A stretch of 64,000 nucleotides of DNA from an uncultured Phycisphaerales bacterium (lineage in GTDB: Bacteria > Planctomycetota > Phycisphaerae > Phycisphaerales > UBA1924), in contig CAXBAF010000007.1 in the NCBI GenBank assembly GCA_963973795.1, forward strand, positions 27,200 through 91,199, read 5' to 3'. Every line of letters begins with the position of its first letter. Within the stretch, counting starts at the first letter, position 1. Below are positions 9,076 through 52,280 of this stretch, piece after piece. The notes under the pieces are model-generated. The model saw only the letters and a list, made by a program, of their open reading frames with translations, was not told where the DNA came from and ran no database searches. A program made the translations under genes and the position numbers.

Positions 9076-11103
9076 ATGGCTTTGTTCGTGCATCGAGACT
9101 CGGCGTGCGGATGGGGAGGCGTTGCGGTGGACGGACTGACGAGACGCGTGCCCTCTGGGTATACGGCGGTGGATCTCTTCCCGGCGGCACCGGCGGGGGG
9201 AGGGGTTCAGCCGTTGCGGGTGTGTGTGCTGGTGCGCAACGAGCCGCAGCCTGTGGGAGGGCGGCTGGTCGTGGTGCGGGATGTATTCGATGCGTCCGTC
9301 TACCTCGGCTGTGTATTGGACGCCTCGGGTGCGGTGGATTCGTGGGTCGAGGTCTGGGTTCAGCGGGTGGACACGCTGGACGCCTCGGCGGGGGGCGGAC
9401 ACGGGACGCTGAGCAACGCCTCGCTCGAGGCCCGCTGGGCGCGGACCGTCGATGGCCTTGCGGCGACGGCGCCGGACATGCTGATCCGAACCGGGTACGA
9501 GACACAGAACCCGACCCCGATCGCTTTGGACGCGGTGAAGGGCGGGGCGCGGACGCCCATGCACGAGGCGACGGGCGCGGACTGGTCGGTGTGCAGGGAC
9601 GAGGATGTGCTCGCGTCGAAAGGGCTGGCGTCGTACCGGTCGTCGCTGGCGCGGCACCTCTGGATCGAGCAGTTGGGAGAGGGGTCGCCGTTCGTTGACG
9701 CATCGGATGTGTCGGCGGTCGGTTCGGCGTTGTTAACCGGCGTGAACCGAGATCTGGTCCCGTTCAACCTGGGCGGGGGCTTGATGATGGTCCGGCGGCT
9801 GGCGCCGATCGGGTATGCCGAGCAGGTGGGCGTGGTCGGCGGGCTGTCGTGGAGCGGCGTACGGCACGGCATCGAGGCGATCGATCTCCGGGCGGGGCAC
9901 GAGATGGTGACCCGGGTGAGCGGGTTCGCGGGTGATCCGGAGCCGATCGATCCGGACCGTCTGTTCCTGGGGCGTCACGGGCGATGGGGGCGGCTCGTTG
10001 AGTCGCTGCATCTGAAATTGAAGATGGTCGCCGAGGCGGTGGGGGCTGTGCGTTCTTCCTCAGAGCGCACGGGGCGACCTCTGCTCAACCTGACGGATGA
10101 GAGTTTTCGTGTCGAGTTATGGGAGGGCGGGATCGGCCTGCCCCGGTTGTGGACGAGCCGGGTCCGTCTTGTTGATCCGGGTTCCGCGTTCGAGATGTCG
10201 ATCGAGGGGCTGCGGGCACGCGGGTTTGTGAGCCCCGACGGCATCGGGCGCGGCGTCTATCGACCCGAACTCGGCGGCGAGGCGACCGGCGGACGGTGTG
10301 ACTTCCGGATTCGGTCCATCGATGAGAGTGATCCGAGCGGTGCGGTGGTCGAAGCTACGTTCCGGACTGACGCGCGGGTGTCCGGCGGCGGGAGCGAGTT
10401 GCTCGAGTTGCGGGTGCCGGCGGAGGGCGAGCGGCTGTTGTTGTATGGGCGGGTGCGGGCCGAGGAGGCGCTGGGGCCCGGGGAGCTGCGGTTCCGCGGC
10501 TTGCCGGTGCCCCTGGATGGGCGGATGGGTGAACTGATTCGCGCGGCCGAGGGTGTTCCGTTGCGAGATGTTTCGTTTGAGGTCGTGCCGCTCGCGTCGA
10601 CGCCCTGCGACCTGCACGCGCTTGGGGTTCTGGGTGTGCGCACGCTGCTGGTCGATGGGGGTAACACGCTGCCGGTCGCGTTGGACGAGCTCGTCAGTCT
10701 TGCTCGGGTCGCGTCTGAGGGGCTGAAGGACGGGCTCGCGCTCGAGGATGCCTTTGAGCGGGCGTTCTTCTCCGATGTGAGGTGGGGAGATTCGCTCGGA
10801 CCGCAGCGGCTGGTGAACGAGGCGATCGTTCCGGCTCAGGCGGCGGACCTGATCCCTCCGGAGATCTGGATGCGGGTGCTGGCGCTTCTGAGCCGGATGC
10901 TGCTGGGGATCGAAGGTGTTTCGATGTGCCGAGACGCCGGGGACACGCGTGGATTGCACCCGCATCTGGTGTTCGACGGAGCTGCGGAGGGTCTGGCGTC
11001 GCTGCTGGTGCGGACGCGGAGCCTGATGGTGGTGGACTGGCGGCACAACCGTGAGGTTCACTCGGTGCTGCGGCGGTATCGCGAGGGGATGGCGTCGGCG
11101 TGA
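9076..11103 (+). CDS. Hypothetical 675-aa protein with no signal peptide; first gene of the plus-strand T6SS-containing block
   Basis: A long ORF with an ATG start and coding-like composition, divergent from the Fur-family gene. No family was recognised by eye. Confidence 0.7.
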   Translation: MALFVHRDSACGWGGVAVDGLTRRVPSGYTAVDLFPAAPAGGGVQPLRVCVLVRNEPQPVGGRLVVVRDVFDASVYLGCVLDASGAVDSWVEVWVQRVDTLDASAGGGHGTLSNASLEARWARTVDGLAATAPDMLIRTGYETQNPTPIALDAVKGGARTPMHEATGADWSVCRDEDVLASKGLASYRSSLARHLWIEQLGEGSPFVDASDVSAVGSALLTGVNRDLVPFNLGGGLMMVRRLAPIGYAEQVGVVGGLSWSGVRHGIEAIDLRAGHEMVTRVSGFAGDPEPIDPDRLFLGRHGRWGRLVESLHLKLKMVAEAVGAVRSSSERTGRPLLNLTDESFRVELWEGGIGLPRLWTSRVRLVDPGSAFEMSIEGLRARGFVSPDGIGRGVYRPELGGEATGGRCDFRIRSIDESDPSGAVVEATFRTDARVSGGGSELLELRVPAEGERLLLYGRVRAEEALGPGELRFRGLPVPLDGRMGELIRAAEGVPLRDVSFEVVPLASTPCDLHALGVLGVRTLLVDGGNTLPVALDELVSLARVASEGLKDGLALEDAFERAFFSDVRWGDSLGPQRLVNEAIVPAQAADLIPPEIWMRVLALLSRMLLGIEGVSMCRDAGDTRGLHPHLVFDGAAEGLASLLVRTRSLMVVDWRHNREVHSVLRRYREGMASA

Positions 11104-11231: not shown

Positions 11232-11759
11232 ATGGCTCGCACAAAGGTTTCGACGCGTATCGGTATGGTCCTGCTCGCGGTGTTCGGTGTTGTCGCGGTC
11301 GGCTGCGGCGGGACGTCGTTCAAGAAGTTTGACGTTAATGTGTCGCTCGACGGGTCGATGCCGGCTGGCGAGTCCGTGACGGTGGACCTCATTGCGCTCG
11401 GCGGCGATCGGGCCGAAGAACTCGACGGGATGCCGATGCGGAAGTATTGGACGCTCAATGACCCGTACCGCTCGAGTCTTCTTGCGGAAGGCGTGCTGTG
11501 GACGGCGGAACTCGACGCGTCGAACCCCGAGGCGACGCTCAAGTCAACCAACAAGATCTGGAACTCGCCGATCTGGAAGTCGGGCGGGAAACTGTTCGTT
11601 CTCGCGAAACTCCGGGGCGTCGGGCCTGGTCCGAACGGTGACCCGAGGCGGCGGACCATCAATCGCGACGCATCGCTCTGGACGCAGAAGCGGATTGATG
11701 TCACGGTGCGGCAGGACGGGATCTCGTACTCGCCGACCGAGAAATCCGTCGGTCAGTGA
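11232..11759 (+). CDS. Lipoprotein (175 aa); candidate divergent TssJ
   Basis: ATG 11232, preceded by GGAACGGAAG, gives MARTKVSTRIGMVLLAVFGVVAVGCGG (lipobox). Size and a beta-rich pattern (VTVDLIAL, KLFVLAKL) are compatible with TssJ. The TssJ assignment rests on context only. Confidence 0.65.
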   Translation: MARTKVSTRIGMVLLAVFGVVAVGCGGTSFKKFDVNVSLDGSMPAGESVTVDLIALGGDRAEELDGMPMRKYWTLNDPYRSSLLAEGVLWTAELDASNPEATLKSTNKIWNSPIWKSGGKLFVLAKLRGVGPGPNGDPRRRTINRDASLWTQKRIDVTVRQDGISYSPTEKSVGQ

Positions 11760-11779
11760 TCGATGCGAACAGCCGGTGA

Positions 11780-14700
11780 TTGTTTGATGTGTCGGATCGA
11801 TCGCGAGAGACCCGCGTCGGCCTGCGTGGCTCGCGTGGGTTGTGTGGAAGGGGTGCGTGCGTGCCGTTGATTGCGGGCAAGCGTGCGGATTCGATCGGCG
11901 GGCACGCGATTGAGCGTCCTGTCGCGGTCGGGGTGCGCGAGAGCACTTGGCTCGCCTACGACCGGACCGGTGATCCCTGTGTCATCGAGGTCTGGGAGCG
12001 GTTCGACGACGGGCCGGTCGCGGGAGCGGATCTCGACGCGTTTGTTGAGCGTGCGGCGCTTCAGCGGCGGGTCGCGGCTGCAGGCGGCAACGCGGAGCGG
12101 ATACTCGGTGGCGGACACGTCGTTGGCGTACGCACGCTCGAAGCGACGGACTTTGGAGCGTTCTACACGCGCGATCGGTACGGGGTTTCGGCGGCGGAGT
12201 TGGCGGCCGGCAAGGTCCGGCTGCGTGGGGATGCGCTGCACGAGATCATGTCGGGCGTGGTCGGCGGGCTGCAGATTTTCCGTGAGCGGGCGGGTCGGCC
12301 GCACGGGGGGCTTGACGCATCCGCGGTTTTGATCTCCGATGGCGCGCCGGGAAAGCGTCGCGTCGGGCTCCGGGCGCCGGCAACCGCTGGCGAGTTGGCG
12401 GAAATCGGTGATCCCGACGGCGACGAGTTGCGGCGGATCGGTCTGCTGATCTTCGAGTTGGTGCAGCATCGCCCGTTTCGCGCGATGGGTGGGTACCCGG
12501 TCCGTGATGGGTCGGAATGGCAGGGGCTTGGGAAGTCCGGTGGGTTCTGGCTCGGGCTCGTCAATGAATTGCTTGCGCCCTCGGGCTGCAGGCTGACGCT
12601 TGGCGAGGTCGCGTCACGGATCGCGGGGCTGCGGTTCCGGGTGGACAAGCCGGGCGCAGGGGTCTGGCTCGGGCGGGCGGGGATCGCGGCGGCGGTGCTC
12701 GGGCTGGTTGGCGGCGGTGTGTGGTTCGGGCTGCGTCCGAGCGAAGAAGCACCCAGGGCGGATTACCGGGACTCGGAGTTCGAACAGTGGCTCCGCACGG
12801 TGCCTGTTGTGGTGTCGCTACGTGAGCGGGTTGGGGCGATGCCCGACGCGCCGGCGGTTCTGCGCGAGGCGGTCGGGCGGCTTGATCCTGAGTCGACGCC
12901 GCGGGGTGGTGTGGACGATTACTTTGATATCCCGAGTCTGTTTGAGGAAGCGGAGCTGTATCGGGTGTTTCGAGCGAGGCTCGACGGCCCGTTGCCTCAA
13001 CTCGTGGAGAGTGTTCAACAGTTTGCACAGAAAGATTTCGAGGCGAGGGCGGAGACGCAGGAAGAATCCGAGGATCAGAAGCGGCTCGAGCGGCTGGCGT
13101 TCCTGTTCCGGAAGGGGCTTGCCCGCTTCGGCGTCGAGACAGAATCGGAGCAGGTCGCGGACGCCGGGGGTGTCCAGGACGAGACCGGCGAGACGGCCGG
13201 GGGCGGTTCGTCTGATCCTGTCGACGAGGCGACCCTGAGCCTGCTTGACTCGTTCTCTCACGACAATTGGGCGTCGCATGGGATGATCGCGGGGTTGGTT
13301 GAGGGGGACGGGGTTGCCTGGTTCCGGCCTTCCGCAGCGAGTCTCTTTTCTTCACAGCTGGATGAGATCCGCGACGGACTTTCGGTGCTCGCCGACGGCG
13401 CGACGGACTTCGATGGGGCGACGGCGCACAGGCCTGTTGTCGGTGCGGTCGAGGAGACGGTTGGGCGCTTTGTCGGGGCGGTCGAATCTGTCGAGCGCAC
13501 CGCGGGCGTGATCGGTGTGTGGCGTGACGGGCTGTATCCGCGGATTGAATCCGGGAGTTCGGTCATCGCGGCGGCGTCGGCATGGCCTGATGTCCCCGCG
13601 TCGGTTGCGGATGATCTTCCGGATGGCGGCGATCCGTACCTCGCGTCGTTTGAGTCATTCGCGGAGCGGGTCGGCGTCGTTGGCGATGGCGAGACGGATG
13701 AAGACCTCGGTCGGCGTCTGGAGGCTGCGGCGGCCGCGGTGGACGCGGTACGGGCGGTTATCGAGCGAGGGTGGGATGCGGGGTCCGTGGATCTTCTGGC
13801 TCACGCGGCGTGGGTGGAATCGGCTCGGGATCGGATCGCGGAGAGGCCTGCTGCGAGCGACGGTGACGAGTTGGCGGTGTGGATCGATGCCCGGATCGCA
13901 TTGAGCGAGGAATGGCTGGAAAGCGTGGCGTCGGCGACGCCGGTTGCAGCGGACAGCGATTGGCCGGCTGCCGATTTTGCGAGTGAACTCGCGGCGACGC
14001 GTGATTTGTGGCGAGAGGCGATGCGTGACGCGCGGCAGGACACCCTGGAGGCGGAGGCAGAGATCGCGGGCGGGGTCGGGGTGATCGCGCCGGCGCTCGA
14101 TGCGGTCGAGGAGCGGCTGCGTGAGGTCCGGCGGCAGCCGCGGTGGCGGAGTCTTCGCGATGAGGTCGATTCCGAGTCGCGTGGGTTGGAGCGAGACTTT
14201 GCATCGCTGGCGACGATGATCGAGCGGATTCACGCGCAGGTGCTGCAGCCTCCGCGGGATCTGATCGCGTTTTGGCGGGAGAACCCGATCCGCGTGGAGG
14301 GGTTCGACGGCGCGGAGGAGCTGGCGCTTGCGGGCGGGGCGATTGTTGAGCGGTACGCCGTTGAATGGGAACGCTGGGCGGCGGGTGAGGGTCTTGATGA
14401 TGAGGCGTTGAAGCGGGCTCCGCAGACGGACCGTCTTCGGACGGCGCTGCGAGGTGTCGATGAGGTCGTGAGGGCGGCGGCCGAGGATGTCCTGGGTGTG
14501 CTGGGCGAGGCACGGGCGTACGGCCGGTTCGACGGGGACGCGGTGGAGGGTGCGGTCGGGCGTTGGCTTGCCGGGCGATTCGCCGAGGCGGTGTTGTCGT
14601 TCGAGGGGTGGAGTGACAAGTCTCGACTCGGTGACGACGGTGTGTTCGCGACGCGGCTCGGTTCTCTCGCAGACGAAGCGGGGAGCACGCTCGACGCGCT

Positions 14701-16693
14701 CGCGGCGGATCTTGGGACGCTTTCAGAATCGTCGGGGCTTGTGGCGCGCGGGTACGGCGTCGGTGACCGCGTCGATGGATTCGCGGTGGGTGATCGCGTT
14801 GAACTCGCGTCGTTGGCGGATCGGCTTCGATCGCCCGATGTTCCGTCGGTCGCGGATATCGATGAGATAGATCAGGCGGTTCTGGCGGTTGAGGGGTTGG
14901 TTGAGATTTCACGGGTCGATGACCCCAGCTTGCTGATGGATGCGTTTGTCGCCGAGTGCGGTTCGGCGGGGCGGGCCGGGATCGGTGTTCAGGCGATCCG
15001 ACGGCTCGATTCGATCGGCCGGGACGCGGGCGCGTGGCCGAGTTCGATCGATGTGATGTTGCGAGACCGCGACGGCCTCGCGGACGGGATCTCGGCGCTG
15101 CGGGGCACGGTCCCGGCGGGTGACTTTGAGAAGATTGGTGAGGCGCTCCGCGGGATCGTCCGGGCCTGGTGGCTGCGCGGGGTGGCCGAGGCAGACGATC
15201 GCGGTGACTTTGCGCGGGGTGTGAGCGGCGCGTCGTCGTGGTTCGACGGGGTTGGCGACGGCTGGGTCGGGGTGCTTGGTTCGGAATTGCTGACGGGGCG
15301 GGCTCGGTACAACGCGGCGCTCGTGGGGCTGCGGGCCGAGATCGACGAGTTGGGTAGAAAGGCGATGGTGCAGGCGTCGTCATCGGATTCGAGTGCGATC
15401 CCGGGGATCGATGCTCGGCTGCTGTCTGATGTGCGTGCCAAACTCGGTGAGATCAACCGGCTTGCGCAGCAGACGCTCGACGACGGGGAGCGGGCTCGGG
15501 CGTTGATGTGGGTGCGGGGGTTTGAGCGTGAGCTCAACGACGCACAGGGCGGGCGGCGCGGCTGGGATGAGGCCGGTGTTGGCCCAGTCGGCGCAGGGCT
15601 GGCGAACTGGTCGGCGACGCTGGACGAAAACGTGGAGCCGCCGCGGGTGGTGTATTCGTATTCCCCACCGCAGGCGTCGGACGCGGTGTCGATTGAGTTC
15701 AGGCTGGTCTCTGATTTGCCCAGCGGTGGGCAGGTGTTTCTCGGTGCCGATGAGGTGTCGGTGGCTGTGTTCGGAGCCATGCTTCGCGGAACCGCTGAGA
15801 AGCTTGAGGACCGTTTGGCGGGTTCGATGTACGAGGATGTGGACGGCCGGCTCGAGGGGAACATGGTTGAGGGCCCCTCGACGCGAGAGTTGTTTGCTCG
15901 GCGTGGCGGTCGGTCGCGGTTCCGGGTCCGCTCGCGGGAGCTGTGGCTGGATTCCGAAGACGGGCGCTACGGCCCGCCGGAGCGGAAGGCTTCATTCCCG
16001 TCATACCCGGATGGGTTACGAGGTGCAGACCCGAAATCGATCGCGCCGTCTCAGGGCGAGCCGGACGAGGCCCACCCGGTGAACTACGTGAACTCCGCGG
16101 TGGCGTTCGACCTCGCGGAGGCGTTCGGCTGTCGGCTTCCGACGATCGAGGAGTTTCAGGCCGCGATGTCGGCTCCCGGCGTTCCCTCGGTCCGGAGCGG
16201 GCGATGGAACCTGCGCGATGCGACGTTCGGGCGGCAGGTCGAGCACTTCAAATCGGCGTTCGAGATGGAAGTAACGACGCATTATCAGCCGGGCAAGTGG
16301 TCGTACGACGGGACGAACGGCGCGAGTTCCGCGGACTGGGGTCTGGCGGGTGATGACGACCGACTCTGGTTCTATCGGACGGGCGCGGGCGTGGAGAATG
16401 GGTTTCAGAACGGTGTGCTGTTCCGGCACCTGATCGGGAACGTCGCGGAGTATGTGATCGTCGATGAGGGTGCGCGGGACAGCCGGGGCGTGCGCATTCT
16501 GGGCGCGTCGGCGCTGTCCGACCCGACCGTGTCCCCGGGTGATGTGCGGGAGGTCGATGGGGCGCGGAATGGCTACGTGGACGTGGGCTTCCGCCTCGCG
16601 ATCGACGCGGACGACTTCGGGAGCCTCGGCAAGCTGGTCCGTCGACAGATCGCGGAGTCCGACGATTCGTTCTTCGTTGCGGGGGGCGGCTGA
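11780..16693 (+). CDS. Giant bitopic protein: N-terminal degenerate Ser/Thr-kinase-like (pseudokinase) domain, one TM helix, a helical ectodomain of about 1000 aa and a C-terminal FGE-sulfatase (SUMF1)-fold domain; PpkA-position gene
   Basis: The kinase-like region spans about aa 40-285. It reads CVIEVW where VAIK is expected, PHGGLDASAVLI where HRDLKPxN is expected, and has no DFG (RRVGLRAPA), but keeps DELRRIGLLIFELVQHRPF. The TM helix is WLGRAGIAAAVLGLVGGGVWFGL (nt about 12659-12733). The C-terminus (nt about 15685-16620) reads IEFRLV...GCRLPTIEEFQAA...WNLRD...FRHLIGNVAEYV...GYVDVGFRLA. The TTG 11780 start is uncertain. Confidence 0.8.
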   Translation: MFDVSDRSRETRVGLRGSRGLCGRGACVPLIAGKRADSIGGHAIERPVAVGVRESTWLAYDRTGDPCVIEVWERFDDGPVAGADLDAFVERAALQRRVAAAGGNAERILGGGHVVGVRTLEATDFGAFYTRDRYGVSAAELAAGKVRLRGDALHEIMSGVVGGLQIFRERAGRPHGGLDASAVLISDGAPGKRRVGLRAPATAGELAEIGDPDGDELRRIGLLIFELVQHRPFRAMGGYPVRDGSEWQGLGKSGGFWLGLVNELLAPSGCRLTLGEVASRIAGLRFRVDKPGAGVWLGRAGIAAAVLGLVGGGVWFGLRPSEEAPRADYRDSEFEQWLRTVPVVVSLRERVGAMPDAPAVLREAVGRLDPESTPRGGVDDYFDIPSLFEEAELYRVFRARLDGPLPQLVESVQQFAQKDFEARAETQEESEDQKRLERLAFLFRKGLARFGVETESEQVADAGGVQDETGETAGGGSSDPVDEATLSLLDSFSHDNWASHGMIAGLVEGDGVAWFRPSAASLFSSQLDEIRDGLSVLADGATDFDGATAHRPVVGAVEETVGRFVGAVESVERTAGVIGVWRDGLYPRIESGSSVIAAASAWPDVPASVADDLPDGGDPYLASFESFAERVGVVGDGETDEDLGRRLEAAAAAVDAVRAVIERGWDAGSVDLLAHAAWVESARDRIAERPAASDGDELAVWIDARIALSEEWLESVASATPVAADSDWPAADFASELAATRDLWREAMRDARQDTLEAEAEIAGGVGVIAPALDAVEERLREVRRQPRWRSLRDEVDSESRGLERDFASLATMIERIHAQVLQPPRDLIAFWRENPIRVEGFDGAEELALAGGAIVERYAVEWERWAAGEGLDDEALKRAPQTDRLRTALRGVDEVVRAAAEDVLGVLGEARAYGRFDGDAVEGAVGRWLAGRFAEAVLSFEGWSDKSRLGDDGVFATRLGSLADEAGSTLDALAADLGTLSESSGLVARGYGVGDRVDGFAVGDRVELASLADRLRSPDVPSVADIDEIDQAVLAVEGLVEISRVDDPSLLMDAFVAECGSAGRAGIGVQAIRRLDSIGRDAGAWPSSIDVMLRDRDGLADGISALRGTVPAGDFEKIGEALRGIVRAWWLRGVAEADDRGDFARGVSGASSWFDGVGDGWVGVLGSELLTGRARYNAALVGLRAEIDELGRKAMVQASSSDSSAIPGIDARLLSDVRAKLGEINRLAQQTLDDGERARALMWVRGFERELNDAQGGRRGWDEAGVGPVGAGLANWSATLDENVEPPRVVYSYSPPQASDAVSIEFRLVSDLPSGGQVFLGADEVSVAVFGAMLRGTAEKLEDRLAGSMYEDVDGRLEGNMVEGPSTRELFARRGGRSRFRVRSRELWLDSEDGRYGPPERKASFPSYPDGLRGADPKSIAPSQGEPDEAHPVNYVNSAVAFDLAEAFGCRLPTIEEFQAAMSAPGVPSVRSGRWNLRDATFGRQVEHFKSAFEMEVTTHYQPGKWSYDGTNGASSADWGLAGDDDRLWFYRTGAGVENGFQNGVLFRHLIGNVAEYVIVDEGARDSRGVRILGASALSDPTVSPGDVREVDGARNGYVDVGFRLAIDADDFGSLGKLVRRQIAESDDSFFVAGGG

Positions 16694-16701
16694 TGGACCG
16701 G

Positions 16702-16986: not shown

Positions 16987-17210
16987 GGCTGGTTTCCCTC
17001 CGGGCGGGTCCGTGTACTGAACCGTCGGATCCGTATCGGCGGCGTGAGGCCGAGCTTTGAGATTGCGGGGGAGATGCGAGGCCGGGTAGTCGGTTTGTCG
17101 GGGTGGGGTCGGCAAACGCCGCGTGATCGGACGGCGGCAACGGCATCGGGGTCGTGGTCTGCGCGGTTTCCGGACGGTCTGTATGATGCGCCGAGCATGA
17201 GATCGGGCGT

Positions 17211-18176
17211 GTGGCGTTGGACGCCGCGTGGGTCCGCAGGAGTCGTGGGATGAGTGGCATGGGCGGAGAAACCTGGCGATCGCTCGCGGAACTGACCGCG
17301 AACCGGCTTCGGCTGATCCAGGCGGATCTTGCCGATGAGTCCGCGGAGTCGCGGCGGGCTCATCTGGATGACGAGGTGCGGGCGGCTCTGGAGAAGGTGC
17401 CCAATGCTGAGCGGAACGATTTTCTGGAACTCATCGAGGATCGATTCCCGGCATGGGAGGGGGGGCGCGTTGTGAGCGGAGCGTCTGAGGGCACGCTGGT
17501 CTCGGCGACCGACATGGCGGAATTCAACGATCCGGCGTTTCTGCTTCGGCAGCTCATGAAGGCCGCTGAGCAGATGACCCCCGAGCAACGCCGGGAGGCC
17601 GGCGAGCGTCTTGCATCGGTGGGCATCGCGCCCTCGGGTGTGGGCGAGATCCCGGTCGAGTCGCTCGCGAAGGCAAAGGCTTCGATGCAGGCGCCAGCGG
17701 ATGCTGACGTGGATGCGGGCCGGGTGCTCGAGGCGTCGGCGCTGCTGGCGGATCAGGTTCTTCTGTTGGACACGCTTGTATGGAAGATCTGGCGACAGAT
17801 CGCGCCGGATTCGCAGCACCGGAGCCGGACGCAGCTCGGCGCAACGATGTCGTCGTACCTGACGGGGAGCGGTGAGACCGGGCGGGGCGAGGTTGCGGAG
17901 AGTCTCGAGCGGTTCCGCCAGCTGACCGCGGCGCTCGTGAGTTCGATCGGCAAGGTTGGGAGCACGGCGTTCACGCAGCTGAGCCAGCTGAACCCCAACA
18001 ACATCGAGACGATGGCGAAGGACGAGAAGAAGTGGAACGAGAGCCTGGAGCTCGCGGCGTGGCGGAAGTATCGCGAGCTCGCGGGCAAGATGGATCAGGC
18101 GACGGTTGAGAACGAGATGATGCGCGCGGTGTCGCGTACGGTTGAGGACATCATCCGCCCGCGCGGGCGTTCGTGA
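17211..18176 (+). CDS. Hypothetical cytoplasmic protein at the fha/tagH position upstream of tssK; no FHA domain visible
   Basis: The ORF lies directly upstream of tssK with a 52-nt gap and is helical and acidic. The C-terminal half (FTQLSQLNPNNIETMAK..KW..LAAWRKYRELAG) is reminiscent of the non-FHA C-terminal region of TagH/Fha-type proteins, recalled from memory only. The start codon is uncertain, with several in-frame Met codons. Confidence 0.6.
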   Translation: MALDAAWVRRSRGMSGMGGETWRSLAELTANRLRLIQADLADESAESRRAHLDDEVRAALEKVPNAERNDFLELIEDRFPAWEGGRVVSGASEGTLVSATDMAEFNDPAFLLRQLMKAAEQMTPEQRREAGERLASVGIAPSGVGEIPVESLAKAKASMQAPADADVDAGRVLEASALLADQVLLLDTLVWKIWRQIAPDSQHRSRTQLGATMSSYLTGSGETGRGEVAESLERFRQLTAALVSSIGKVGSTAFTQLSQLNPNNIETMAKDEKKWNESLELAAWRKYRELAGKMDQATVENEMMRAVSRTVEDIIRPRGRS

Positions 18177-19593: not shown

Positions 19594-19612
19594 ATCGGCG
19601 GTTCGGTGTCTC

Positions 19613-20356: not shown

Positions 20357-20419
20357 CGACCGGTGCGATCTCGCCGCCGCCGCTGAGGGCCGCGGGGTGA
20401 TCGCCGGAGGCGGAGTCTG

Positions 20420-45092: not shown

Positions 45093-45932
45093 ATGAACGC
45101 CGAGCAGTTGCTCAAGGAAGGCAAGCCGACCGAGGCGCTCGCGGCTCTTCGCGACGAGGTCCGGTCGGACCCATCCAACGCGGAACTCCGCGCATTCCTC
45201 TATCAGTTGCTCTGCGTGCTGGGAGATTGGGACCGGGCGCTCACGCAGATCAATGTCCTGGGCGATCTCAAGCCCAAGGACCTCATCATGGTCGAGTTCT
45301 ACCGCAACGCGATCCGCTGCGAGGCGCTCCGAGACCAGGTCTTCGCCGGCAACCGCACGCCGCTCATGCTCGGCGAACCGGCGGAGTGGATGGGCTGGAT
45401 GGTCCAGGCTGTCGGCCATCACGCACGCGGTGAAATCGCCGCCGCCGCTAGGCTCCGCGATCGTGCATTCGAGGCCGCGCCCGCGATCGATGGCACGATC
45501 AACGGTCAGCCGTTCGACTGGCTCGCCGATACCGACCACCGCCTCGGCCCGATCCTTGAGGTCATTATCCAGGGCAAGTATTACTGGGTGCCCTTCGACC
45601 ACATCAGCGCGATGAAAATCGATCCCCCCGGGAGCCTGCGTGACATGGTCTGGGCCCAGGCTCAGTTCATCTGGAGCAACAAAGGCAAGGCGGTGGGGCT
45701 CATCCCCGTCCGCTATCCCGGGACGATCTCGGGTGGAACCGACGCCGAACGGCTGAGCCGGGCGACTTCATTCGCTGATCTCGAAGACGGCTATTGCGTC
45801 GGCTCGGGGCAGCGCATCTTTGCGAGTGACGCGGGTGAGACCCCGCTGCTTGAAGCACAGCTCATCACGCTCGGCCCTCAAGACGATGATGAAGACGGAT
45901 CGCCGGACCCCGCGGAGACGGGAAATGGCTGA
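45093..45932 (+). CDS. tagJ: T6SS accessory protein TagJ (ImpE family)
   Basis: The TPR-like N-terminus reads LLKEGKPTEALAALRDEVRSDPSNAELRAFLYQLLCVLGDWDRAL, and the C-terminal part contains YYWVPFDHISAMKIDPP. The gene lies between hcp and tssE, as in P. aeruginosa HSI-I. Confidence 0.85.
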   Translation: MNAEQLLKEGKPTEALAALRDEVRSDPSNAELRAFLYQLLCVLGDWDRALTQINVLGDLKPKDLIMVEFYRNAIRCEALRDQVFAGNRTPLMLGEPAEWMGWMVQAVGHHARGEIAAAARLRDRAFEAAPAIDGTINGQPFDWLADTDHRLGPILEVIIQGKYYWVPFDHISAMKIDPPGSLRDMVWAQAQFIWSNKGKAVGLIPVRYPGTISGGTDAERLSRATSFADLEDGYCVGSGQRIFASDAGETPLLEAQLITLGPQDDDEDGSPDPAETGNG

Positions 45933-46431
45933 GCTCACCCCGACCGAGCGCCTCCAGCCCTGTCTGCTGGACCGCCTGACCGACGACGAGCCCACCAAAT
46001 CGGCAGAGAGCCGTGACCGGCGTGTCTTCACCACCAGGCAGCTCCGCGAGGCCGTGCTCCGCGACCTGAGCTGGCTGCTCAATACCGCCCAGCGGCTGGG
46101 CCCCGATGAGAGAGACGAGGCGCCCGAGGTCTACGGCAGCGTGCTCAACTACGGCGTGCCCGATCTCACGGGTGTCACGACCGGCGGGCTCGACATAGGC
46201 GGGCTCGAGAAGGCCCTGATCCGCGCGATCCGAGCGTTCGAACCCCGGATCATGCCGGGAACGCTGCGCATCGTCGCCTCGGTGAACGAGGGCGAGATGT
46301 CGGGCAACGCGCTGGTCTTCGAGGTCCGCGGAGATCTCTGGGCCCAGCCGATCCCTGAGCCGCTCTACATGAAGACCGAGGTCGATCTCGAGACCGGGCA
46401 GTACGTGGTGGAGGAAGCGGCCGGGCGCTGA
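45925..46431 (+). CDS. tssE: T6SS baseplate protein TssE (gp25-like)
   Basis: ATG 45925 inside track ORF 45820..46431 gives MAELTPTERLQPCLLDRLTDDEP..., with LRDLSWLLNT and FEPRI. It overlaps tagJ by 8 nt. Confidence 0.88.
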   Translation: MAELTPTERLQPCLLDRLTDDEPTKSAESRDRRVFTTRQLREAVLRDLSWLLNTAQRLGPDERDEAPEVYGSVLNYGVPDLTGVTTGGLDIGGLEKALIRAIRAFEPRIMPGTLRIVASVNEGEMSGNALVFEVRGDLWAQPIPEPLYMKTEVDLETGQYVVEEAAGR

Positions 46432-46468
46432 CGCGGCCGGCAAAGATCCCGCATCCGGAAGAGGCACG

Positions 46469-48376
46469 ATGGACCAGAAGCTCGTCCGCTATTACGAACG
46501 CGAGCTCCGGCACGTCCGCGAGACGGCCGCCGAGTTCGCCCGCGACTTTCCGAAGATCGCCGGACGTCTCGCGCTCGACGAGTTCGAGTGCGCAGACCCG
46601 TACGTCGAGCGATTACTCGAGGGGTTCGCTTTCCTCGCGGCCCGCGTGCAGCTCAAACTCGACGCCGAGTTTCCCAGGTTCAGCCAGCACCTGCTCGAGT
46701 CCGTCTACCCACACTATCTGTGTCCGACGCCCTCGATGTGCGTGGTTCAGATCCGCCCGGATCTGGAAGACTCGGGCCTCGCCGCCGGCTTCACCGTACC
46801 CCGAGACACCGCCCTGCGGAGCACGATCGGGAGGAGCGACCAGAGCGCCTGCGAGTACCGCACGGCCCACGACGTCACGCTCACGCCCATCGAACTCGTC
46901 GAGGCCCAGTACCACGACCGGGATCTCCTCTCTCTCGATCTCCCGCGCGATGCCCGGCCTGCCGCCGTGGTCCGGCTCCGCCTCCGCGCGTCCGCCGGCC
47001 TGCTCTTTGAGGAGATCGAGACCGACAAACTCGCGATCCACCTGCGCGGAGCCGGGAACCTCCCGACCCGCCTTTACGAGCGACTCATTGCGCACACATC
47101 CGCCGTCCTCGTTCGTCCCACGCAGCGGCCTCCCGCGTGGACGGTGCGGCTCGATCCCAAGGCGAGCGTTCGTCAGATGGGGTTCGCCGACAATGAGGCG
47201 TTGCTCCCGGTCGTCCCGCGGACCTTCCAGGGCTACCGGCACCTCCAGGAGTACTTTGCCTTCCCCGAGCGGTTCCGATTTATCGAGATCTCGGGTCTCC
47301 GCCGAGCATTCGAGCGTTGCGACGCTCCCTCGATCGAGATCGATTTTCTGCTCAATGACGGCGACCCCGAGCTCGAGCAGGCGGTCGATGCGTCGGCGTT
47401 CGCGCTGCACTGTACGCCCGCGATCAACCTGTTCCCCAAACGGTGCGACCGGATCCATGTTTCTGACCGATTCCATGAGTTCCACGTCGTTCCCGACAAA
47501 ACCCGCCCGCTCGATTACGAGATCTACGACATCACCGACGTCGTGGGCGTGGGGGGGCAGATCGACGACGAACGCTCGTTCCGACCGTTCTACAAAGCCA
47601 GCGACATGGACGAGGACACGGGGGACGGCGGGGCGTTCTTCGAGACCGCCCGCAAGCCGCGCCAACTGACCGACCGCGAGCGTCGGTCGGGCCGCCGATC
47701 GAGCTACCCGGGGAGCGAGGTCTATCTCCAGCTCGTCGACGCGTCGAGCGCACCCTACCGATCGGACCTCCGCCAGCTCGCGATCAGCACCCGGTGCACC
47801 AACCGCGACCTGCCGCTCCGGATGCCCGTCGGCCAGGGCCGGACAGACTTCTCGATGGACATCGGCGGGTCCGTCGAGTCGATCCGCTGCCTGACCGGGC
47901 CCACGCCTCCCCGCCCCAGCTTTGTCGAGGGTGAGATTCTCTGGCGCCTGATCAGCCACCTCTCGCTCAACTATCTTTCGCTCTCGGATTCGGATCTTGC
48001 GCTGGGGTCTGACTACACCGATCCCAACTCAAGCGGCGCCGCCGCGATGCGCGATCTGCTCAAGATCTACGGGCACCTCTCCGAAGCACCGACGCGTAAG
48101 CAGATCGAGGGTCTGCGGAGCATCCGCAGCCGACCGATCACCAGACGCGTGCCGCGGGACGGGCCGATCAGCTTCGCCCGAGGCCTCGCGATCGACGTGA
48201 GTTTCGAGGAGGGGTACTTCGAAGGTTCCGGCTGCTTCGTCCTCGGCGCTGTCCTCGAGCGGTTCTTCGCGAAGTATGTCTCGATCAACAGTTTCACAGA
48301 AACCCGAGTCCACACCCGCGAGCGGGGGGAGATCATGCGATGGCCAACCAGGATCGGAACGCGGCACACGCTCTGA
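46469..48376 (+). CDS. tssF: T6SS baseplate protein TssF (ImpG)
   Basis: The N-terminus reads LVRYYERELRHVRETAAEFARDFPKIAGRL. Length is 635 aa. Confidence 0.93.
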   Translation: MDQKLVRYYERELRHVRETAAEFARDFPKIAGRLALDEFECADPYVERLLEGFAFLAARVQLKLDAEFPRFSQHLLESVYPHYLCPTPSMCVVQIRPDLEDSGLAAGFTVPRDTALRSTIGRSDQSACEYRTAHDVTLTPIELVEAQYHDRDLLSLDLPRDARPAAVVRLRLRASAGLLFEEIETDKLAIHLRGAGNLPTRLYERLIAHTSAVLVRPTQRPPAWTVRLDPKASVRQMGFADNEALLPVVPRTFQGYRHLQEYFAFPERFRFIEISGLRRAFERCDAPSIEIDFLLNDGDPELEQAVDASAFALHCTPAINLFPKRCDRIHVSDRFHEFHVVPDKTRPLDYEIYDITDVVGVGGQIDDERSFRPFYKASDMDEDTGDGGAFFETARKPRQLTDRERRSGRRSSYPGSEVYLQLVDASSAPYRSDLRQLAISTRCTNRDLPLRMPVGQGRTDFSMDIGGSVESIRCLTGPTPPRPSFVEGEILWRLISHLSLNYLSLSDSDLALGSDYTDPNSSGAAAMRDLLKIYGHLSEAPTRKQIEGLRSIRSRPITRRVPRDGPISFARGLAIDVSFEEGYFEGSGCFVLGAVLERFFAKYVSINSFTETRVHTRERGEIMRWPTRIGTRHTL

Positions 48377-49398
48377 TCCTCCGGCTGATGGAGAAGCCGT
48401 ACGCGTACGACTTCTTCGCCGCAGTCCGCAGGGTCGAGGCAAGCAAGAACACGCCCGCTCGCACGGGGGCGTCCCAACGCCTGCGCGATGATCCCATCCG
48501 GTTCGCCCAGGAACCCTCCCTGGCGTTCGCCCCGTCCACGCTGCACGGATACACGCCGGGCGCGCGTGGTCAACCCGACCGGATGACCGTCAACTTCATG
48601 GGACTGTTCGGCCCCAACGGTCCCCTCCCGCTCCATCTCACCGAGTACGCCCGCGATCGCGACCGCAACGCACGCGACAAGTCGTTCGTTCGCTTCGCCG
48701 ACATCTTCCACCACCGGATGATCGCGCTGTTCTACCGGGCCTGGGCGGTCAACCAGGCCGCGGTCTCGTTCGATCGCATCGCCGACGACCCGGATTCGGA
48801 CCGGTTCGGCTTCTACGTCGCCAGCGTGATCGGCCTCGCCGACAAGACGCTCCGCCGGCGCGACGGCGTGCCCGATATCGCCAAGCAGCACTTCGCCGGG
48901 CGTCTCGTCCAGCAGTCCAAGCCTCCCGAGGGGTTGGCGGCGATCCTGTCGGATTACTTCGGAATGCCCTGCCAGATCGAAGAGTTCGTCGGGCAATGGA
49001 TCGATATCCCCGAGGCCGACCGGCTCCGCATGGGCGCGCACCCCGCGATCGGTCGGCTCGGCGAGTCCGCGGTCGTCGGCGCGCGCACGTGGGATTGCAG
49101 CCAGAAGTTCCGCATCGTCATCGGCCCGATCTCTCTGGATCAGTTCCACCGCCTGCTCCCGACGGGGCGGTCCTTCGCTCGCCTCGTCGGCTGGGTCCGC
49201 AACTACATCGGATACGAATTCGATTGGGACGCGAAGATCATTCTCAAGAAAGAGGAAGTCCCCGTCGCGAGGCTGGGTGGCGACGGTCGGTCGCCCCCCT
49301 CGATGCTCGGCTGGACGACGTGGACAAGCACGAAGCCGTTCGAGGACGACGCGGACGACCTCGTTCTGCGAGCGCCCGACGAGGGGCACATGGTGTAG
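48340..49398 (+). CDS. tssG: T6SS baseplate protein TssG (ImpH)
   Basis: Motifs YAYDFFAAVRRVE and NFMGLFGPNGPLPLHLTEY are present. It overlaps the end of tssF. Confidence 0.92.
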   Translation: MANQDRNAAHALILRLMEKPYAYDFFAAVRRVEASKNTPARTGASQRLRDDPIRFAQEPSLAFAPSTLHGYTPGARGQPDRMTVNFMGLFGPNGPLPLHLTEYARDRDRNARDKSFVRFADIFHHRMIALFYRAWAVNQAAVSFDRIADDPDSDRFGFYVASVIGLADKTLRRRDGVPDIAKQHFAGRLVQQSKPPEGLAAILSDYFGMPCQIEEFVGQWIDIPEADRLRMGAHPAIGRLGESAVVGARTWDCSQKFRIVIGPISLDQFHRLLPTGRSFARLVGWVRNYIGYEFDWDAKIILKKEEVPVARLGGDGRSPPSMLGWTTWTSTKPFEDDADDLVLRAPDEGHMV

Positions 49399-49484: not shown

Positions 49485-52280
49485 ATGGCCGAGATCAGTC
49501 TCAAAGCACTCTTCGGGAAGTTCAACAGCCTGTGCTACAAATCGAGCGAGGCCGCGACGGTCTACTGCAAGATGCGTGGCAACCCCCATGTCGAGGTGCT
49601 GCACTTCTTCCACCAGGTGCTGCAACTGCAGGACTCGGATCTGCACCGCATCATCCGCCACTACAACCTCAACCCGTCCGTTCTCGCGTCGGATCTCACC
49701 GAATCGCTCGACAAGCTCCCCCGCGGGGCGTCCAGCCTTTCCGGGTTCTCCGCCGACTTCGAAGAGGCCGTCGAGCGTGCTTGGACATACGCGACGCTGC
49801 TCCTCAACGAGTCTTCGATCCGTTCCGGGCACATCATTGTCGGGCTGCTCAAGACCAAGGGCCTGCTCCGCTCGCTCACGGCGATCAGCGGCGAGTTCGA
49901 GAAGATCAAGGTCGAGGACCTGACCGACAAGTGGGAGAAGATCCTGGGCGATTCGGTCGAGGCGGGGCTCGCTGCGAAGGACGGCTCCAAGGTGGGCGGC
50001 GGGGCCGTCCCGGGTGAAGCTTCGGGCGCGATGTCGCCCGCCCAGATGGGCAAGGAAGAGGCCCTCAAGCGATTCTGCAAGGACCTGACCGAGGAGGCCC
50101 GCACCGGGAAGATCGACCCGATCGTGGGCCGCGACGACGAGACCCGTCAGGTTGTCGACATTCTGATGCGCCGTCGGCAGAACAACCCTGTCCTCGTCGG
50201 CGAGGCCGGCGTGGGCAAAACCGCCGTCGCGGAGGGGTTCGCGCACAAGATCGTCGAGAACGACGTCCCTCCCCCGCTCCAGGGCGTGCGTCTGCTCGAA
50301 CTCGACGTCAGCGCGCTCCAGGCGGGCGCGAGCATGAAGGGCGAGTTCGAGGAGCGCCTCAAGCAGGTCATCGAGGAAGTCCAGGCATCGAGCCAGCCCA
50401 CGATTCTGTTCATCGACGAGGTCCACAGGCTCATCGGCGCTGGCGGCGCCGCGGGCACGGGCGACGCCGCCCAGCTCCTCAAGCCGGCGCTCGCCCGCGG
50501 TCTCCTACGCACCGTCGCCGCGACCACCTGGGCCGAGTACAAGAAGCACATCGAGAAGGACCCGGCGCTCACCCGCCGCTTCCAGACCGTGCAGGTGGAT
50601 GAGCCCGACGAGGCCCGCGCGATCAGGATGATGCGGAAGGTCGCGGGCATCTTCGAGCAGCACCATCAGGTCCAGATCCTCGACGAGGCGATCGAGTCGG
50701 CCGTCAAGCTGGGGCACCGCTACATCCCGGGTCGTCAGCTCCCCGACAAGGCGGTGAGCCTTCTTGACACCGCGTGTGCGCGCGTCGCGATCGGGCAGCA
50801 CGCCGTCCCCGCCGCGGTCGACGACTGCCGCAAGCGAATCCAGGCGTACGAGACCGAGATCGAGATCCTCGGTCGTGAGAAGGATGTCGGGCGAGACCAC
50901 GAGAAGCGCGTCGCGGGGCTCGAAGCCGCGATCGCTGAGCAGAACGAGATTCTCTCCGGCCTCGAGGAGTCGTGGAAAAAGGAGAAGGATCTGGTCGACA
51001 AGATCCTCGCCTGCCGGATGAAGCTCCGCGGCGGGACGGTCGTCCACGCAAAATCGTCCGCCACTTCCCCATCCGACGTAGGGGGCGACCTCGACGACGA
51101 CGAGGGCAATACGGGCGATGATCCCGGCAGCGTCGACACGATGGGCGGGAGCGTCACCGAAGCGTCCGCGACGGCGCTGTCCGACACGGAGCGGGAGGAA
51201 GTCGCCGCGGAACTCGAATCGCTCCAGGGGCAGCTCTTGGCGCTCCAGGGCGAGAACCCGCTGATCCTCCCCGAGTGCGACGCGAACGCGGTCGCCGCCG
51301 TCGTCGCCGACTGGACCGGCATCCCCGTTGGCAAGATGGTCAAAAACGAGATCCAGGCGATTCTGAGCCTTGCCGAGACGCTCAACCACCGCGTCATCGG
51401 TCAGAAGCACGGGCTCGACGCGATCGCCAAGCGAGTCCAGACCAGCCGGGCGAGCCTCGACAATCCCAACAAGCCCATCGGCGTCTTCATGCTCGCGGGT
51501 CCCTCGGGTGTCGGCAAGACCGAGACCGCGCTGGCGCTGGCCGAATCCCTCTATGGCGGTGAGCAGAACATTGTCACCATCAATATGAGCGAGTTCCAGG
51601 AAGCGCACACCGTCTCGACGCTCAAGGGGGCGCCTCCCGGCTATGTCGGGTATGGCGAGGGCGGGATCCTCACGGAGGCCGTCCGGCGCAAGCCCTATTC
51701 CGTGGTGCTGCTCGACGAGGTCGAGAAGGCGCACAGCGATGTCCACGAGATCTTTTTCCAGGTCTTCGACAAGGGGACGATGGAGGACGGCGAAGGCCGG
51801 GTGATCGATTTCAAGAACACGATCATCCTGCTCACGACCAACGTCGGGTCCGACCTCATCATGAACATGTGCGCCGACCCCGACCTGATGCCGAGCGTCG
51901 AGGGGCTCCAGAAGTCGCTCCGCGAGCCCATGCTCAAGGTCTTCCCCGCGGCCCTGCTCGGGCGGATGACGGTGATCCCGTACTTCCCGCTCAGCGACGA
52001 CATGATCCGCGAGATCAGCAAGCTGCAACTCGGGCGGATCCAGTCCCGGATCGCCGGCAACCACGGCGCCGAGTTCGTCTACGGCGACGACGTGCTCGAC
52101 CTGATCGTCAGCCGGTGCACCGAACTCGAGTCGGGCGGCCGGATGATCGACGCGATCCTGACGCAGACCATGCTGCCCGAGATCTCCAGCGCGTTCCTGA
52201 ACCGGATGATGGAGGGCGGGGAGATCAACAAGGTTTCCGTCGGTGTTGACGATGGCGAGTTCACGTACAGATTCGAGTGA
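49485..52280 (+). CDS. clpV: T6SS AAA+ ATPase ClpV (TssH)
   Basis: ATG 49485 inside track ORF 48996..52280 gives a ClpV-type N-domain (LFGKFNSLCYKSSEAAT...). Two Walker A motifs are present, GEAGVGKTAVAEG and GPSGVGKTETA. Length is 931 aa. Confidence 0.93.
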   Translation: MAEISLKALFGKFNSLCYKSSEAATVYCKMRGNPHVEVLHFFHQVLQLQDSDLHRIIRHYNLNPSVLASDLTESLDKLPRGASSLSGFSADFEEAVERAWTYATLLLNESSIRSGHIIVGLLKTKGLLRSLTAISGEFEKIKVEDLTDKWEKILGDSVEAGLAAKDGSKVGGGAVPGEASGAMSPAQMGKEEALKRFCKDLTEEARTGKIDPIVGRDDETRQVVDILMRRRQNNPVLVGEAGVGKTAVAEGFAHKIVENDVPPPLQGVRLLELDVSALQAGASMKGEFEERLKQVIEEVQASSQPTILFIDEVHRLIGAGGAAGTGDAAQLLKPALARGLLRTVAATTWAEYKKHIEKDPALTRRFQTVQVDEPDEARAIRMMRKVAGIFEQHHQVQILDEAIESAVKLGHRYIPGRQLPDKAVSLLDTACARVAIGQHAVPAAVDDCRKRIQAYETEIEILGREKDVGRDHEKRVAGLEAAIAEQNEILSGLEESWKKEKDLVDKILACRMKLRGGTVVHAKSSATSPSDVGGDLDDDEGNTGDDPGSVDTMGGSVTEASATALSDTEREEVAAELESLQGQLLALQGENPLILPECDANAVAAVVADWTGIPVGKMVKNEIQAILSLAETLNHRVIGQKHGLDAIAKRVQTSRASLDNPNKPIGVFMLAGPSGVGKTETALALAESLYGGEQNIVTINMSEFQEAHTVSTLKGAPPGYVGYGEGGILTEAVRRKPYSVVLLDEVEKAHSDVHEIFFQVFDKGTMEDGEGRVIDFKNTIILLTTNVGSDLIMNMCADPDLMPSVEGLQKSLREPMLKVFPAALLGRMTVIPYFPLSDDMIREISKLQLGRIQSRIAGNHGAEFVYGDDVLDLIVSRCTELESGGRMIDAILTQTMLPEISSAFLNRMMEGGEINKVSVGVDDGEFTYRFE

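Follow-up and report, generated by a model that had tools for sequence, protein, structure and literature searches.

The window analysed here, a stretch of 64,000 nucleotides of contig CAXBAF010000007.1 from an uncultured marine Phycisphaerales bacterium, carries a type VI secretion system (T6SS) cluster that resembles the H1 (HSI-I) system of Pseudomonas aeruginosa and encodes no spike, tip or effector genes. T6SS biology is known almost entirely from Proteobacteria and Bacteroidota. The cluster is bracketed by housekeeping genes and lies between fur and glnN: upstream are murC, murB, ddl, greA, panD and the divergent fur, and downstream are glnN, thyA, purN and nadB. All cluster genes are on the plus strand, save one small lipoprotein gene on the minus strand, and the gaps between genes of the block are at most 237 bp, with the sole exception of 16694-17249.

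The T6SS core and its subtype

Gene calls were tested with Pfam and NCBIfam (TIGRFAM) hidden Markov models (HMMs) against their curated cutoffs. Twelve components (TssK, TssL, TssM, TssA, TssB, TssC, Hcp, TagJ, TssE, TssF, TssG and ClpV) were confirmed, most of them with scores far over the cutoff, TssL and TssM by Pfam but under their TIGRFAM cutoffs. They and the gene that follows them are listed here, with lengths in amino acids (aa):

18229-19593, plus strand: TssK, baseplate (PF05936, E 4e-60; TIGR03353, 217 bits, cutoff 100)
19652-20356, plus strand: TssL (DotU), short form without a peptidoglycan-binding domain (PF09850, E 1.7e-26)
20420-24829, plus strand: TssM, 1469 aa (PF14331 IcmF-related_N, E 6e-58, 196.6 bits)
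40696-41925, plus strand: TssA, short H1-type (TIGR03363, 217 bits, cutoff 160.85; ImpA_N, E 5.6e-30)
42121-42636, plus strand: TssB, small sheath subunit (PF05591, E 5e-58; TIGR03358, 190 bits)
42633-44126, plus strand: TssC, large sheath subunit (TIGR03355, 726 bits)
44355-44855, plus strand: Hcp (TssD), tube (PF05638, E 7.5e-37, 126.9 bits; TIGR03344, 77.7 bits, cutoff 58.9)
45093-45932, plus strand: TagJ (ImpE/HsiE1) (PF07024, E 1.7e-40, 138 bits; PDB HsiE1 4uqz, E 1.7e-77)
45925-46431, plus strand: TssE, gp25-like baseplate protein (TIGR03357, 79.6 bits; PF04965)
46469-48376, plus strand: TssF (PF05947, E 1.6e-231; TIGR03359, 650 bits)
48340-49398, plus strand: TssG (PF06996, E 4.7e-105; TIGR03347, 336.5 bits)
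49488-52280, plus strand: ClpV (TssH), last gene of the cluster (TIGR03345, 1218 bits, cutoff 885)
52485-54683: glnN, type III glutamine synthetase, next gene after clpV (GSIII_N, E 3e-77)

The locus thus encodes the sheath (TssB/C), the tube (Hcp), the baseplate wedge (TssE/F/G/K), the TssA cap and the ClpV recycler. Of the membrane complex it supplies the inner-membrane portion (TssL, TssM), and it further encodes TagJ and accessory genes particular to the lineage. TssB and TssC both exceed their TIGRFAM cutoffs, as does the whole baseplate set of TssE, TssF, TssG and TssK. TssL scores 93.6 bits against Pfam DotU (cutoff 27) and 68 bits against TIGR03349 (cutoff 90). TssM reaches 311.6 bits against TIGR03348 (cutoff 388), with matched profile positions running only from 36 to 496 of 1168; its N-terminal membrane helices and NTPase domain are canonical, and approximately the first 500 residues alone match any model. 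The start of tssE overlaps the stop of tagJ by 8 nucleotides, with the ATG at 45925 read straight from the sequence.

Two core genes are missing from the block: vgrG and a recognizable tssJ, as no open reading frame (ORF) in the window matches TssJ/T6SS-SciN or TIGR03352. An earlier note on this DNA had read two gene orders from motifs, tssK-L-M-tagF and tssA-B-C-hcp-tagJ-E-F-G-clpV with glnN directly after clpV, and these orders are borne out by the HMMs and, for TagF, by fold. Its 13 'core' calls all stand as identifications, 12 by HMM and TagF by fold; only 11 of them are core, TagF and TagJ being accessory.

The top PDB match of TssC is the P. aeruginosa H1 TssC1 sheath (5n8n, 821 bits), against 495 bits for the next entry, about 397 for Vibrio cholerae VipB and 254 for Francisella IglB. 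TagJ, encoded between hcp and tssE, scores 264 bits against P. aeruginosa HsiE1. Along with the short TssA and the gene order, these sequence similarities support the H1/HSI-I likeness that the earlier note had proposed, and with it subtype i3. That note had also treated tagJ as a subtype-restricted gene; TagJ is in fact not restricted to H1, and according to a 2026 review it occurs in Agrobacterium, Burkholderia, Neisseria, Salmonella, Serratia and Xanthomonas (PMC13584744).

Spike genes in the window and in related loci

VgrG and PAAR are absent from the window, and this result is solid. Neither domain gave a Pfam or NCBIfam match in the large window ORFs or in sub-segments of the giant proteins, and none was detected in the places where, by the earlier note, a match would have refuted its reading, namely ORFs 9076..11103 and 17211..18176 and the giant proteins. 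We also built a VgrG HMM from nine VgrGs of related loci, five of them from Phycisphaerales and recognized by Pfam at E 1e-89 to 1e-104, and a PAAR HMM whose seeds Pfam recognizes at E 7e-28. Run against six-frame ORFs of the 64-kb window, the VgrG HMM gave a best E of only 0.063 (stop-to-stop ORFs of at least 40 aa) and the PAAR HMM a best E of only 0.92 (ORFs of at least 25 aa). As positive controls, the same two HMMs found 74 VgrG (42 + 32) and 54 PAAR ORFs in 160 related loci. In the flanks beyond the window, some 9 kb on the upstream side and 6 kb on the downstream side, precomputed Pfam calls place neither domain. The six-frame HMMs and Pfam therefore agree with the earlier observation of a block without VgrG or PAAR, and no recognizable effector/immunity pair lies in it either.

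To get a comparative perspective, we collected approximately 160 related loci (given L numbers here) by scanning species-representative genomes with TssG and Joint Genome Institute (JGI) metagenomes with the family of unk658, our name for the first gene of the cluster. At least five other genomes of the window's clade (L007, L008, L009, L010/L001 and L089) share the vgrG-less arrangement, in which the order TpsA - tssA...clpV - glnN (TpsA being a giant exoprotein described below) is accompanied by fur - unk658 at the other end. The clade relatives include UBA7812, a 699-kb contig, the closed chromosome CP060234.1 (L009), GCA_027083355.1 and the metagenome contig MDTG01235021.

In the next clades, where TssG is 50-56% identical, a canonical VgrG directly follows clpV (L011-L014, L019 and L021), and in L014 the order continues as VgrG - DUF6931 x2 - PAAR - unk658 - lipoprotein - kinase-like gene. 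VgrG lies within about 5 kb of clpV in 34 of the 42 genome loci with enough sequence. Among the 30 metagenome loci with at least 7 kb available upstream of unk658, 19 have VgrG there and 18 have PAAR, the latter often 100-1000 bp from unk658. Adaptor genes (DUF2169) and effector-like genes (M23 + Tlde1, LysM/PG-binding) occupy the space between vgrG and PAAR. Given this position of VgrG and PAAR between clpV and unk658 in the wider set of loci, the usual order of the family is one co-directional array with a vgrG-cargo-PAAR module at the junction of both halves. Judged from gene order across the clades, vgrG and PAAR were then lost in the window's clade as a derived state, which followed from the exchange of the two arms.

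The one-strand layout, which the earlier note had regarded as unusual, is the rule in related loci of the Planctomycetes-Verrucomicrobia (PVC) group, and the Pseudomonas and Xanthomonas i3 loci that we retrieved are co-directional too, with the order clpV - vgrG - tagH - tssK. PVC relatives from Phycisphaerales, Sedimentisphaerales and other Planctomycetota (L012, L014, L100, L132 and L172) share this layout with the window, along with unk658, the lipoprotein, an FGE-fused sensor, a TagH homologue without an FHA domain and a TagF invisible to Pfam. Unlike the window, they retain clpV-vgrG-(adaptor/effector)-PAAR immediately upstream of unk658, their TagF is usually a standalone protein of about 320 aa, and the tssA half comes first.

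Several loci show further features of spike and arm arrangement. L012 encodes by its VgrG an 841-aa cargo protein (18338-20863) with Peptidase_M23 and Tlde1/YkuD domains, an L,D-transpeptidase-type effector; cargo beside VgrG in L014 (16103-17375) and L102 (6944-8269) comprises a tandem DUF6931 pair and a DUF2169 adaptor. The domains of this sister-clade cargo point to peptidoglycan-targeting antibacterial effectors in Planctomycetota. An orphan vgrG-PAAR-vgrG-effector island is present in the metagenomic relative L171. A subclade (L133, L134, L136, L137, L140, L146, L148, L150 and L163) has a TssC-like ORF just upstream of unk658 but on the other strand, a divergent layout like that of HSI-I; in L133, clpV-vgrG lies further upstream on the plus strand, pointing to a second sheath gene or to arms arranged in another way.

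The core ORFs are all intact in the window and in at least five related genomes. Compared with UBA7812 (L007), the ratio of nonsynonymous to synonymous substitution rates (dN/dS) is 0.03 for TssB, 0.03 for TssC, 0.06 for TssF, 0.11 for ClpV, 0.12 for Hcp and 0.14 for TssG, against 0.12 for the housekeeping GlnN, with dS of about 0.6-1.7. Values this low, and similar to that of glnN, argue that the machine is being maintained.

Accessory genes and a candidate control circuit

Five accessory genes precede tssK, and a sixth follows tssM:

9127-11103, plus strand: unk658, first cluster gene, conserved T6SS-associated cytoplasmic protein (family and AlphaFold2 model, no known fold)
11232-11759, plus strand: 175-aa lipoprotein (lipobox AVG|C)
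11861-16693, plus strand: unk1610, with a kinase-like N-terminus, membrane helix, long region and C-terminal FGE-sulfatase-like (TagR-like) domain
16702-16986, minus strand: 94-aa lipoprotein (lipobox LTG|C; no Pfam match)
17250-18176, plus strand: unk308, homologue of the TagH/Fha1 C-terminal domain, without an FHA domain
24883-29478, plus strand: TagF fusion, with the TagF fold in residues 1 to about 330, a membrane helix, a region of about 900 aa and a C-terminal FGE-sulfatase-like domain

In the TagF fusion, residues 1-339 have no Pfam match, no TagF-family hit was returned for the window copy, and the PDB sequence search gave nothing useful for the TagF candidate. An AlphaFold2 model of this region (pLDDT 90.5) found TagF crystal structures as its top Foldseek matches: Acinetobacter baylyi 9t0n (E 3.4e-7, TM about 0.5 over the full length) and P. 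aeruginosa 6iz8/2qnu, with probability 1.0. The family carries the invariant motifs GKHPGW..DH and SxDGKGRxxYPM, with invariant residues G21, K22, H23, P24, G25, W26, D28 and H29, and S93, D95, G96, K97, R99 and P103. The alpha and beta loops of TagF have been described as GK.P..GD and S.D..GR..P (bioRxiv 10.64898/2025.12.08.692957). Because the top structural matches are TagF and the invariant residues fall at the published loop positions, we accept the modelled N-terminal region as TagF. The predicted membrane helix lies at about 26029-26100, and Pfam matches FGE-sulfatase further on at E 5e-6 and 5.4e-7. In relatives, members of the TagF region's family are mostly standalone proteins of about 320 aa without Pfam annotation. 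This PVC family with the TagF fold comprises more than 200 Pfam-unannotated clusters, so that current TagF models overlook a branch and surveys of TagF context under-count.

The product of unk1610 has one predicted membrane helix (about 12656-12740) followed by a long, presumably periplasmic region. Its last ~570 aa and the C-terminus of the TagF fusion are paralogues (29% identity, E 2e-20), and FGE-sulfatase is matched in unk1610 at E 0.0075. The FGE-sulfatase-like domain of both proteins is of the COG1262 type, which is that of periplasmic TagR (PMC13584744). At the other end, the unk1610 N-terminus has no Pfam match at E<=1. Of its family, 3 of 24 members match Pkinase (best E 0.0059), and the family consensus CGRPHGNLKATNVLI resembles the HRD catalytic loop minus the Asp. 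By this alignment the N-terminus is probably a pseudokinase in which the catalytic Asp of the HRD motif has been replaced.

The gene unk308 is always directly upstream of tssK in PVC loci, which is the position of tagH in proteobacterial i3 loci. The window copy itself has no Pfam match; 6 of 14 family members match PF20232 T6SS_FHA_C (best E 7.6e-4), and hhalign gives a weak alignment with the proteobacterial TagH C-terminus (E 0.0022, probability 13%). Pfam finds no Pkinase, PP2C or FHA match in the window ORFs, and with them none of the active Ser/Thr kinase, PP2C phosphatase and FHA-bearing Fha protein of the TagQRST-PpkA-PppA-Fha pathway.

Taken together, the FGE paralogues and the T6SS_FHA_C traces in the unk308 family, with no PP2C, FHA or threshold-level kinase found, make a phosphorylation-independent version of the H1 control circuit plausible. 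In such a circuit TagF would be tethered to the membrane and joined to a presumably periplasmic FGE/TagR-like domain. Through sequestration of the FHA-less TagH homologue or of Hcp, it would restrain assembly for as long as no periplasmic signal is sensed. The two single-pass proteins, the TagF fusion and unk1610, would sense the periplasmic cue through their FGE-like domains, and the pseudokinase-FGE protein would stand in for the PpkA/TagR branch with no phosphorylation involved. Sequestration of TagH by TagF is known (PMC13584744), and in A. baylyi TagF acts as a spike-loading checkpoint that blocks tube and sheath growth before the spike is loaded and is brought to the membrane by TagZ (bioRxiv 10.64898/2025.12.08.692957).

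The 175-aa lipoprotein always accompanies this T6SS family, directly after unk658 or after tagF. Its family has 165 representatives, and since 0 of 143 members match Pfam TssJ/T6SS-SciN, we rejected it as a sequence-recognizable TssJ; PDB sequence profile searches with it were empty. By position it is a candidate TssJ-analogue. The C-terminal ~970 aa of TssM (residues 501-1469), which are periplasmic by predicted topology, have no Pfam match at E<=1 and no PDB sequence match. A lipoprotein not recognizable as TssJ by sequence, together with an unrecognizable periplasmic part of TssM, suggests that the outer half of the membrane complex has been remodelled in this T6SS family. Proteins or profiles of unk658, the lipoprotein, unk308 and TssM gave nothing useful against PDB sequences.

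The unk658 family comprises 112 proteins of about 655-670 aa from Phycisphaerae, other Planctomycetota and Kiritimatiellae. The protein has no Pfam, NCBIfam or PDB sequence match, and Foldseek searches of its AlphaFold2 model (pLDDT 82, pTM 0.82) against PDB and BFVD returned none at E<=1e-3, with no gp27/gp5 match. As a canonical VgrG stands alongside it in relatives (L014; 19/30 loci), unk658 was rejected as a cryptic VgrG. The protein of ORF 9127-11103 is encoded with 100% identity on DDFO01000054.1 (207 kb; GCA_002337215.1) and on a 120-kb Tara Oceans scaffold, and its named relatives are Phycisphaeraceae or Phycisphaerales. On the first of these contigs (L170), deposited from a metagenome-assembled genome, glnN and gcvP are called as fragments (458 + 347 aa; 238 aa); both genes are unbroken (732 aa) in Tara scaffold_53 (L169) and in the window, and the deposited contig probably carries indel errors.

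The 94-aa lipoprotein gene, the only opposite-strand gene of the block, is the sole ORF in the 556 bp that separate unk1610 from unk308. It is called as a gene on public contigs, and tblastn finds it in the same position only in the window's clade (L089, 66% identity; L164, 43%; L001, 49%).

At the upstream edge (8549-9126), fur is divergent to the first T6SS gene with a 191-bp spacer between them, a pairing that is also kept in the relative L089; by eye, no AT-rich Fur-box-like sequence is obvious in the GC-rich fur/unk658 spacer. A promoter and terminator scan of 40.5-52.6 kb gave nothing exceeding shuffle expectation. About 2-9 kb upstream of the window, L167 (705-7084) encodes a 1036-aa Ser/Thr kinase with TPR repeats, a 980-aa FG-GAP repeat protein and an EF-hand protein. 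Across the window, G+C stays at 62-69%; with this uniformity, the housekeeping flanks and the synteny kept in relatives, a recent foreign island is not supported. On the plus strand, GC skew is +0.1 to +0.28 (G>C) and AT skew falls to -0.2 (T>A) over 1-18 kb and again over 28-30 kb. From about 30 kb on, both are near zero or slightly negative, and cumulative GC skew peaks near 33 kb. Genes are on the plus strand on both sides of this change, which may reflect the composition of the encoded proteins, the scar of a rearrangement or a switch linked to replication.

A probable relocation of the spike and the wider architecture

For these observations we consider it likely that the window holds the main locus of a functional H1-like (i3) T6SS whose arms have been swapped and whose spike and effector genes lie elsewhere in the genome. 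The ancestral order, on one strand and still present in sister clades, would have been tssA...clpV - vgrG - adaptor/effector - PAAR - unk658 - lipoprotein - sensor - fha-like - tssK-L-M - tagF. The window's clade has the two halves in exchanged order, with the tssK half first, a two-partner secretion (TPS) pair next and the tssA half last; the old junction with vgrG, cargo and PAAR is gone, and clpV stands next to glnN. The spike, tip and effector/immunity genes would then reside in one or more orphan vgrG islands, as in Acinetobacter. VgrG nucleates baseplate assembly and is required for it; this requirement, with the strong purifying selection on the core genes, is why we place the spike genes elsewhere in the genome.

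Some points weigh against this explanation or limit it. The vgrG and PAAR genes of this genome or of its closest relatives were never actually found, in a search that ended at the flanks, short of the other parts of the 207-kb contig and its assembly and of chromosome CP060234.1. A search with the Phycisphaerales VgrG profile was saturated, and among the best 120 of 8000 matches (all E<1e-20) none came from contigs of the window's clade, a result that does not count as support. Without a canonical TssJ and with an unrecognizable periplasmic part of TssM, the outer-membrane part of the machine is unaccounted for. The regulation proposed above draws on weak profile matches (Fha_C in relatives, E 7.6e-4; Pkinase, E 0.0059) and on predicted topology.

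The alternative that survives best gives a role to the two genes now at the junction:

29568-32252, plus strand: TpsB-type outer-membrane transporter (type Vb), 894 aa (PF03865 ShlB, E 2.7e-15, 57.1 bits, cutoff 22.7)
32351-40594, plus strand: TpsA-type giant exoprotein, 2747 aa (TPS domain, E 1.1e-18, 68.6 bits, cutoff 33.5)

TpsA also matches TIGR01901 (E 2.8e-16, 59.2 bits), and the pair has what defines type Vb secretion, a TpsB Omp85-type transporter beside a TpsA with an N-terminal TPS domain. The two genes could be functionally coupled to the T6SS, with TpsA as a contact adhesin or toxin that is co-regulated with firing and partly replaces in-cluster effectors. Their place between tagF and tssA, shared with relatives, speaks for coupling: TpsB has the same position in L001, TpsA precedes tssA in L007-L009 and, more distantly, in L011-L013, and TpsA-like genes adjoin the cluster in L119 and L150. 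However, TPS is a type Vb pathway in its own right, the sequence available for many related T6SS loci contains no TPS gene, and the co-location may be hitch-hiking at a recombination junction. The remaining ~2500 aa of TpsA beyond the TPS domain have no Pfam match at E<=1, and no toxin domain or immunity-like gene was detected for the pair, which is separated from tssA by a gap of 101 bp. We regard coupling as unlikely; the pair may instead be a co-selected adhesin or a hitch-hiker at the rearrangement junction.

The cluster could also be a remnant, decaying or no longer functional, from which spike and cargo genes were lost; such a remnant would likewise lack vgrG, PAAR and effectors, and would fit an unrecognizable TssJ and a divergent TssM C-terminus. 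We find this very improbable, given that the core ORFs are intact across the clade under dN/dS values like that of glnN at appreciable dS, and that the same non-TssJ lipoprotein and TssM type occur in relatives that retain vgrG and PAAR. Least probable of all is an apparatus working without canonical VgrG and PAAR through a lineage-specific spike or hub (unk658 or part of a giant protein): neither gene is found within about 80 kb, and unk658 has a VgrG-like length and an unmatched fold, but it stands alongside canonical VgrG and PAAR in most related loci and is thus no substitute, among PDB and BFVD entries its model shows no resemblance to gp27, gp5 or a beta-helix, and Pfam recognizes Phycisphaerales VgrGs so strongly that a hidden domain would show. 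We know of no VgrG-independent T6SSi.

Relocation of the spike genes has precedents. In 35% of T6SSi-bearing replicons, VgrG is encoded at a distance from the main locus (PMC4793230), and the main cluster of Acinetobacter T6SS-1 is without vgrG (PMC6838775), so that the vgrG-less cluster, which had been thought unusual, follows a known pattern. The description 'non-canonical variant' is accordingly right only in part, as the one-strand layout is normal for this family; the embedded TPS pair is among the more unusual features of the locus. A cluster free of spike and effector genes introduces no new principle: the rearrangement is specific to the clade, and Acinetobacter and one third of the replicons that bear a T6SS offer precedents. 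The more novel aspect is the accessory architecture common to the PVC family, namely the lipoprotein, the TssM C-terminus, the FHA-less TagH, the FGE fusions and unk658.

Comparison with characterized systems places these features. P. aeruginosa H1-T6SS has the nearest TssC and TagJ, a short TssA, the orders tssA-B-C-hcp-tagJ-E-F-G-clpV and (fha-like)-tssK-L-M-tagF, and a periplasmic TagR-type FGE/COG1262 domain. Unlike H1, the window has both arms on one strand in swapped order and no vgrG after clpV; tssJ, an FHA domain, PppA, TagQ/S/T and a bona fide kinase were not detected, the TssM C-terminus is unrecognizable, and TagF and a pseudokinase-like domain are each fused via a membrane helix to an FGE-like domain. 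Acinetobacter T6SS-1 (A. baumannii/A. baylyi) shares a main cluster without vgrG, its spike, PAAR and effector genes being in separate islands (PMC6838775). Its TagF, which gives the best structural match (9t0n) to that of the window, works at the membrane through TagZ without the Fha/PpkA/PppA pathway (bioRxiv 10.64898/2025.12.08.692957). The window differs in its H1-like core-gene lineage with TagJ, shows no TagN/TagX/TslA set, and has a TagF that is covalently membrane-anchored whereas that of Acinetobacter is recruited by a partner. The TagF-PppA fusion of Agrobacterium tumefaciens similarly joins TagF to a second regulatory domain (bioRxiv 10.64898/2025.12.08.692957; PMC5995506); there the partner is a cytoplasmic phosphatase, whereas in the window it is a transmembrane segment and a presumably periplasmic FGE-like domain.

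A more far-reaching reading, which we consider less likely than not, is that PVC bacteria carry a distinct H1-like T6SS sub-architecture combining four changes. An unrelated lipoprotein and a new TssM periplasmic domain would replace the TssJ/TssM C-terminal outer-membrane connection. A phosphorylation-independent transmembrane switch, made of the membrane-anchored TagF::FGE-like fusion, the paralogous pseudokinase::FGE-like protein and TagH without an FHA domain, would replace the TagR-PpkA-PppA-Fha relay. As a protein of new fold, unk658 would be a constant extra component. In the window's clade, the operon would in addition have gained a giant TPS protein, and the spike and cargo genes would have left it.

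Across this locus and the approximately 160 related loci, an H1-like firing machine is retained in marine and sediment Planctomycetota, with apparent replacements in the T6SS parts that touch the envelope and in those that control the moment of firing. The search for effectors in such uncultured lineages would then turn to orphan vgrG islands, not to the main cluster. The TagF-membrane-FGE fusion would be a natural 'wired' TagF checkpoint, and could make the signal that releases TagF directly testable.

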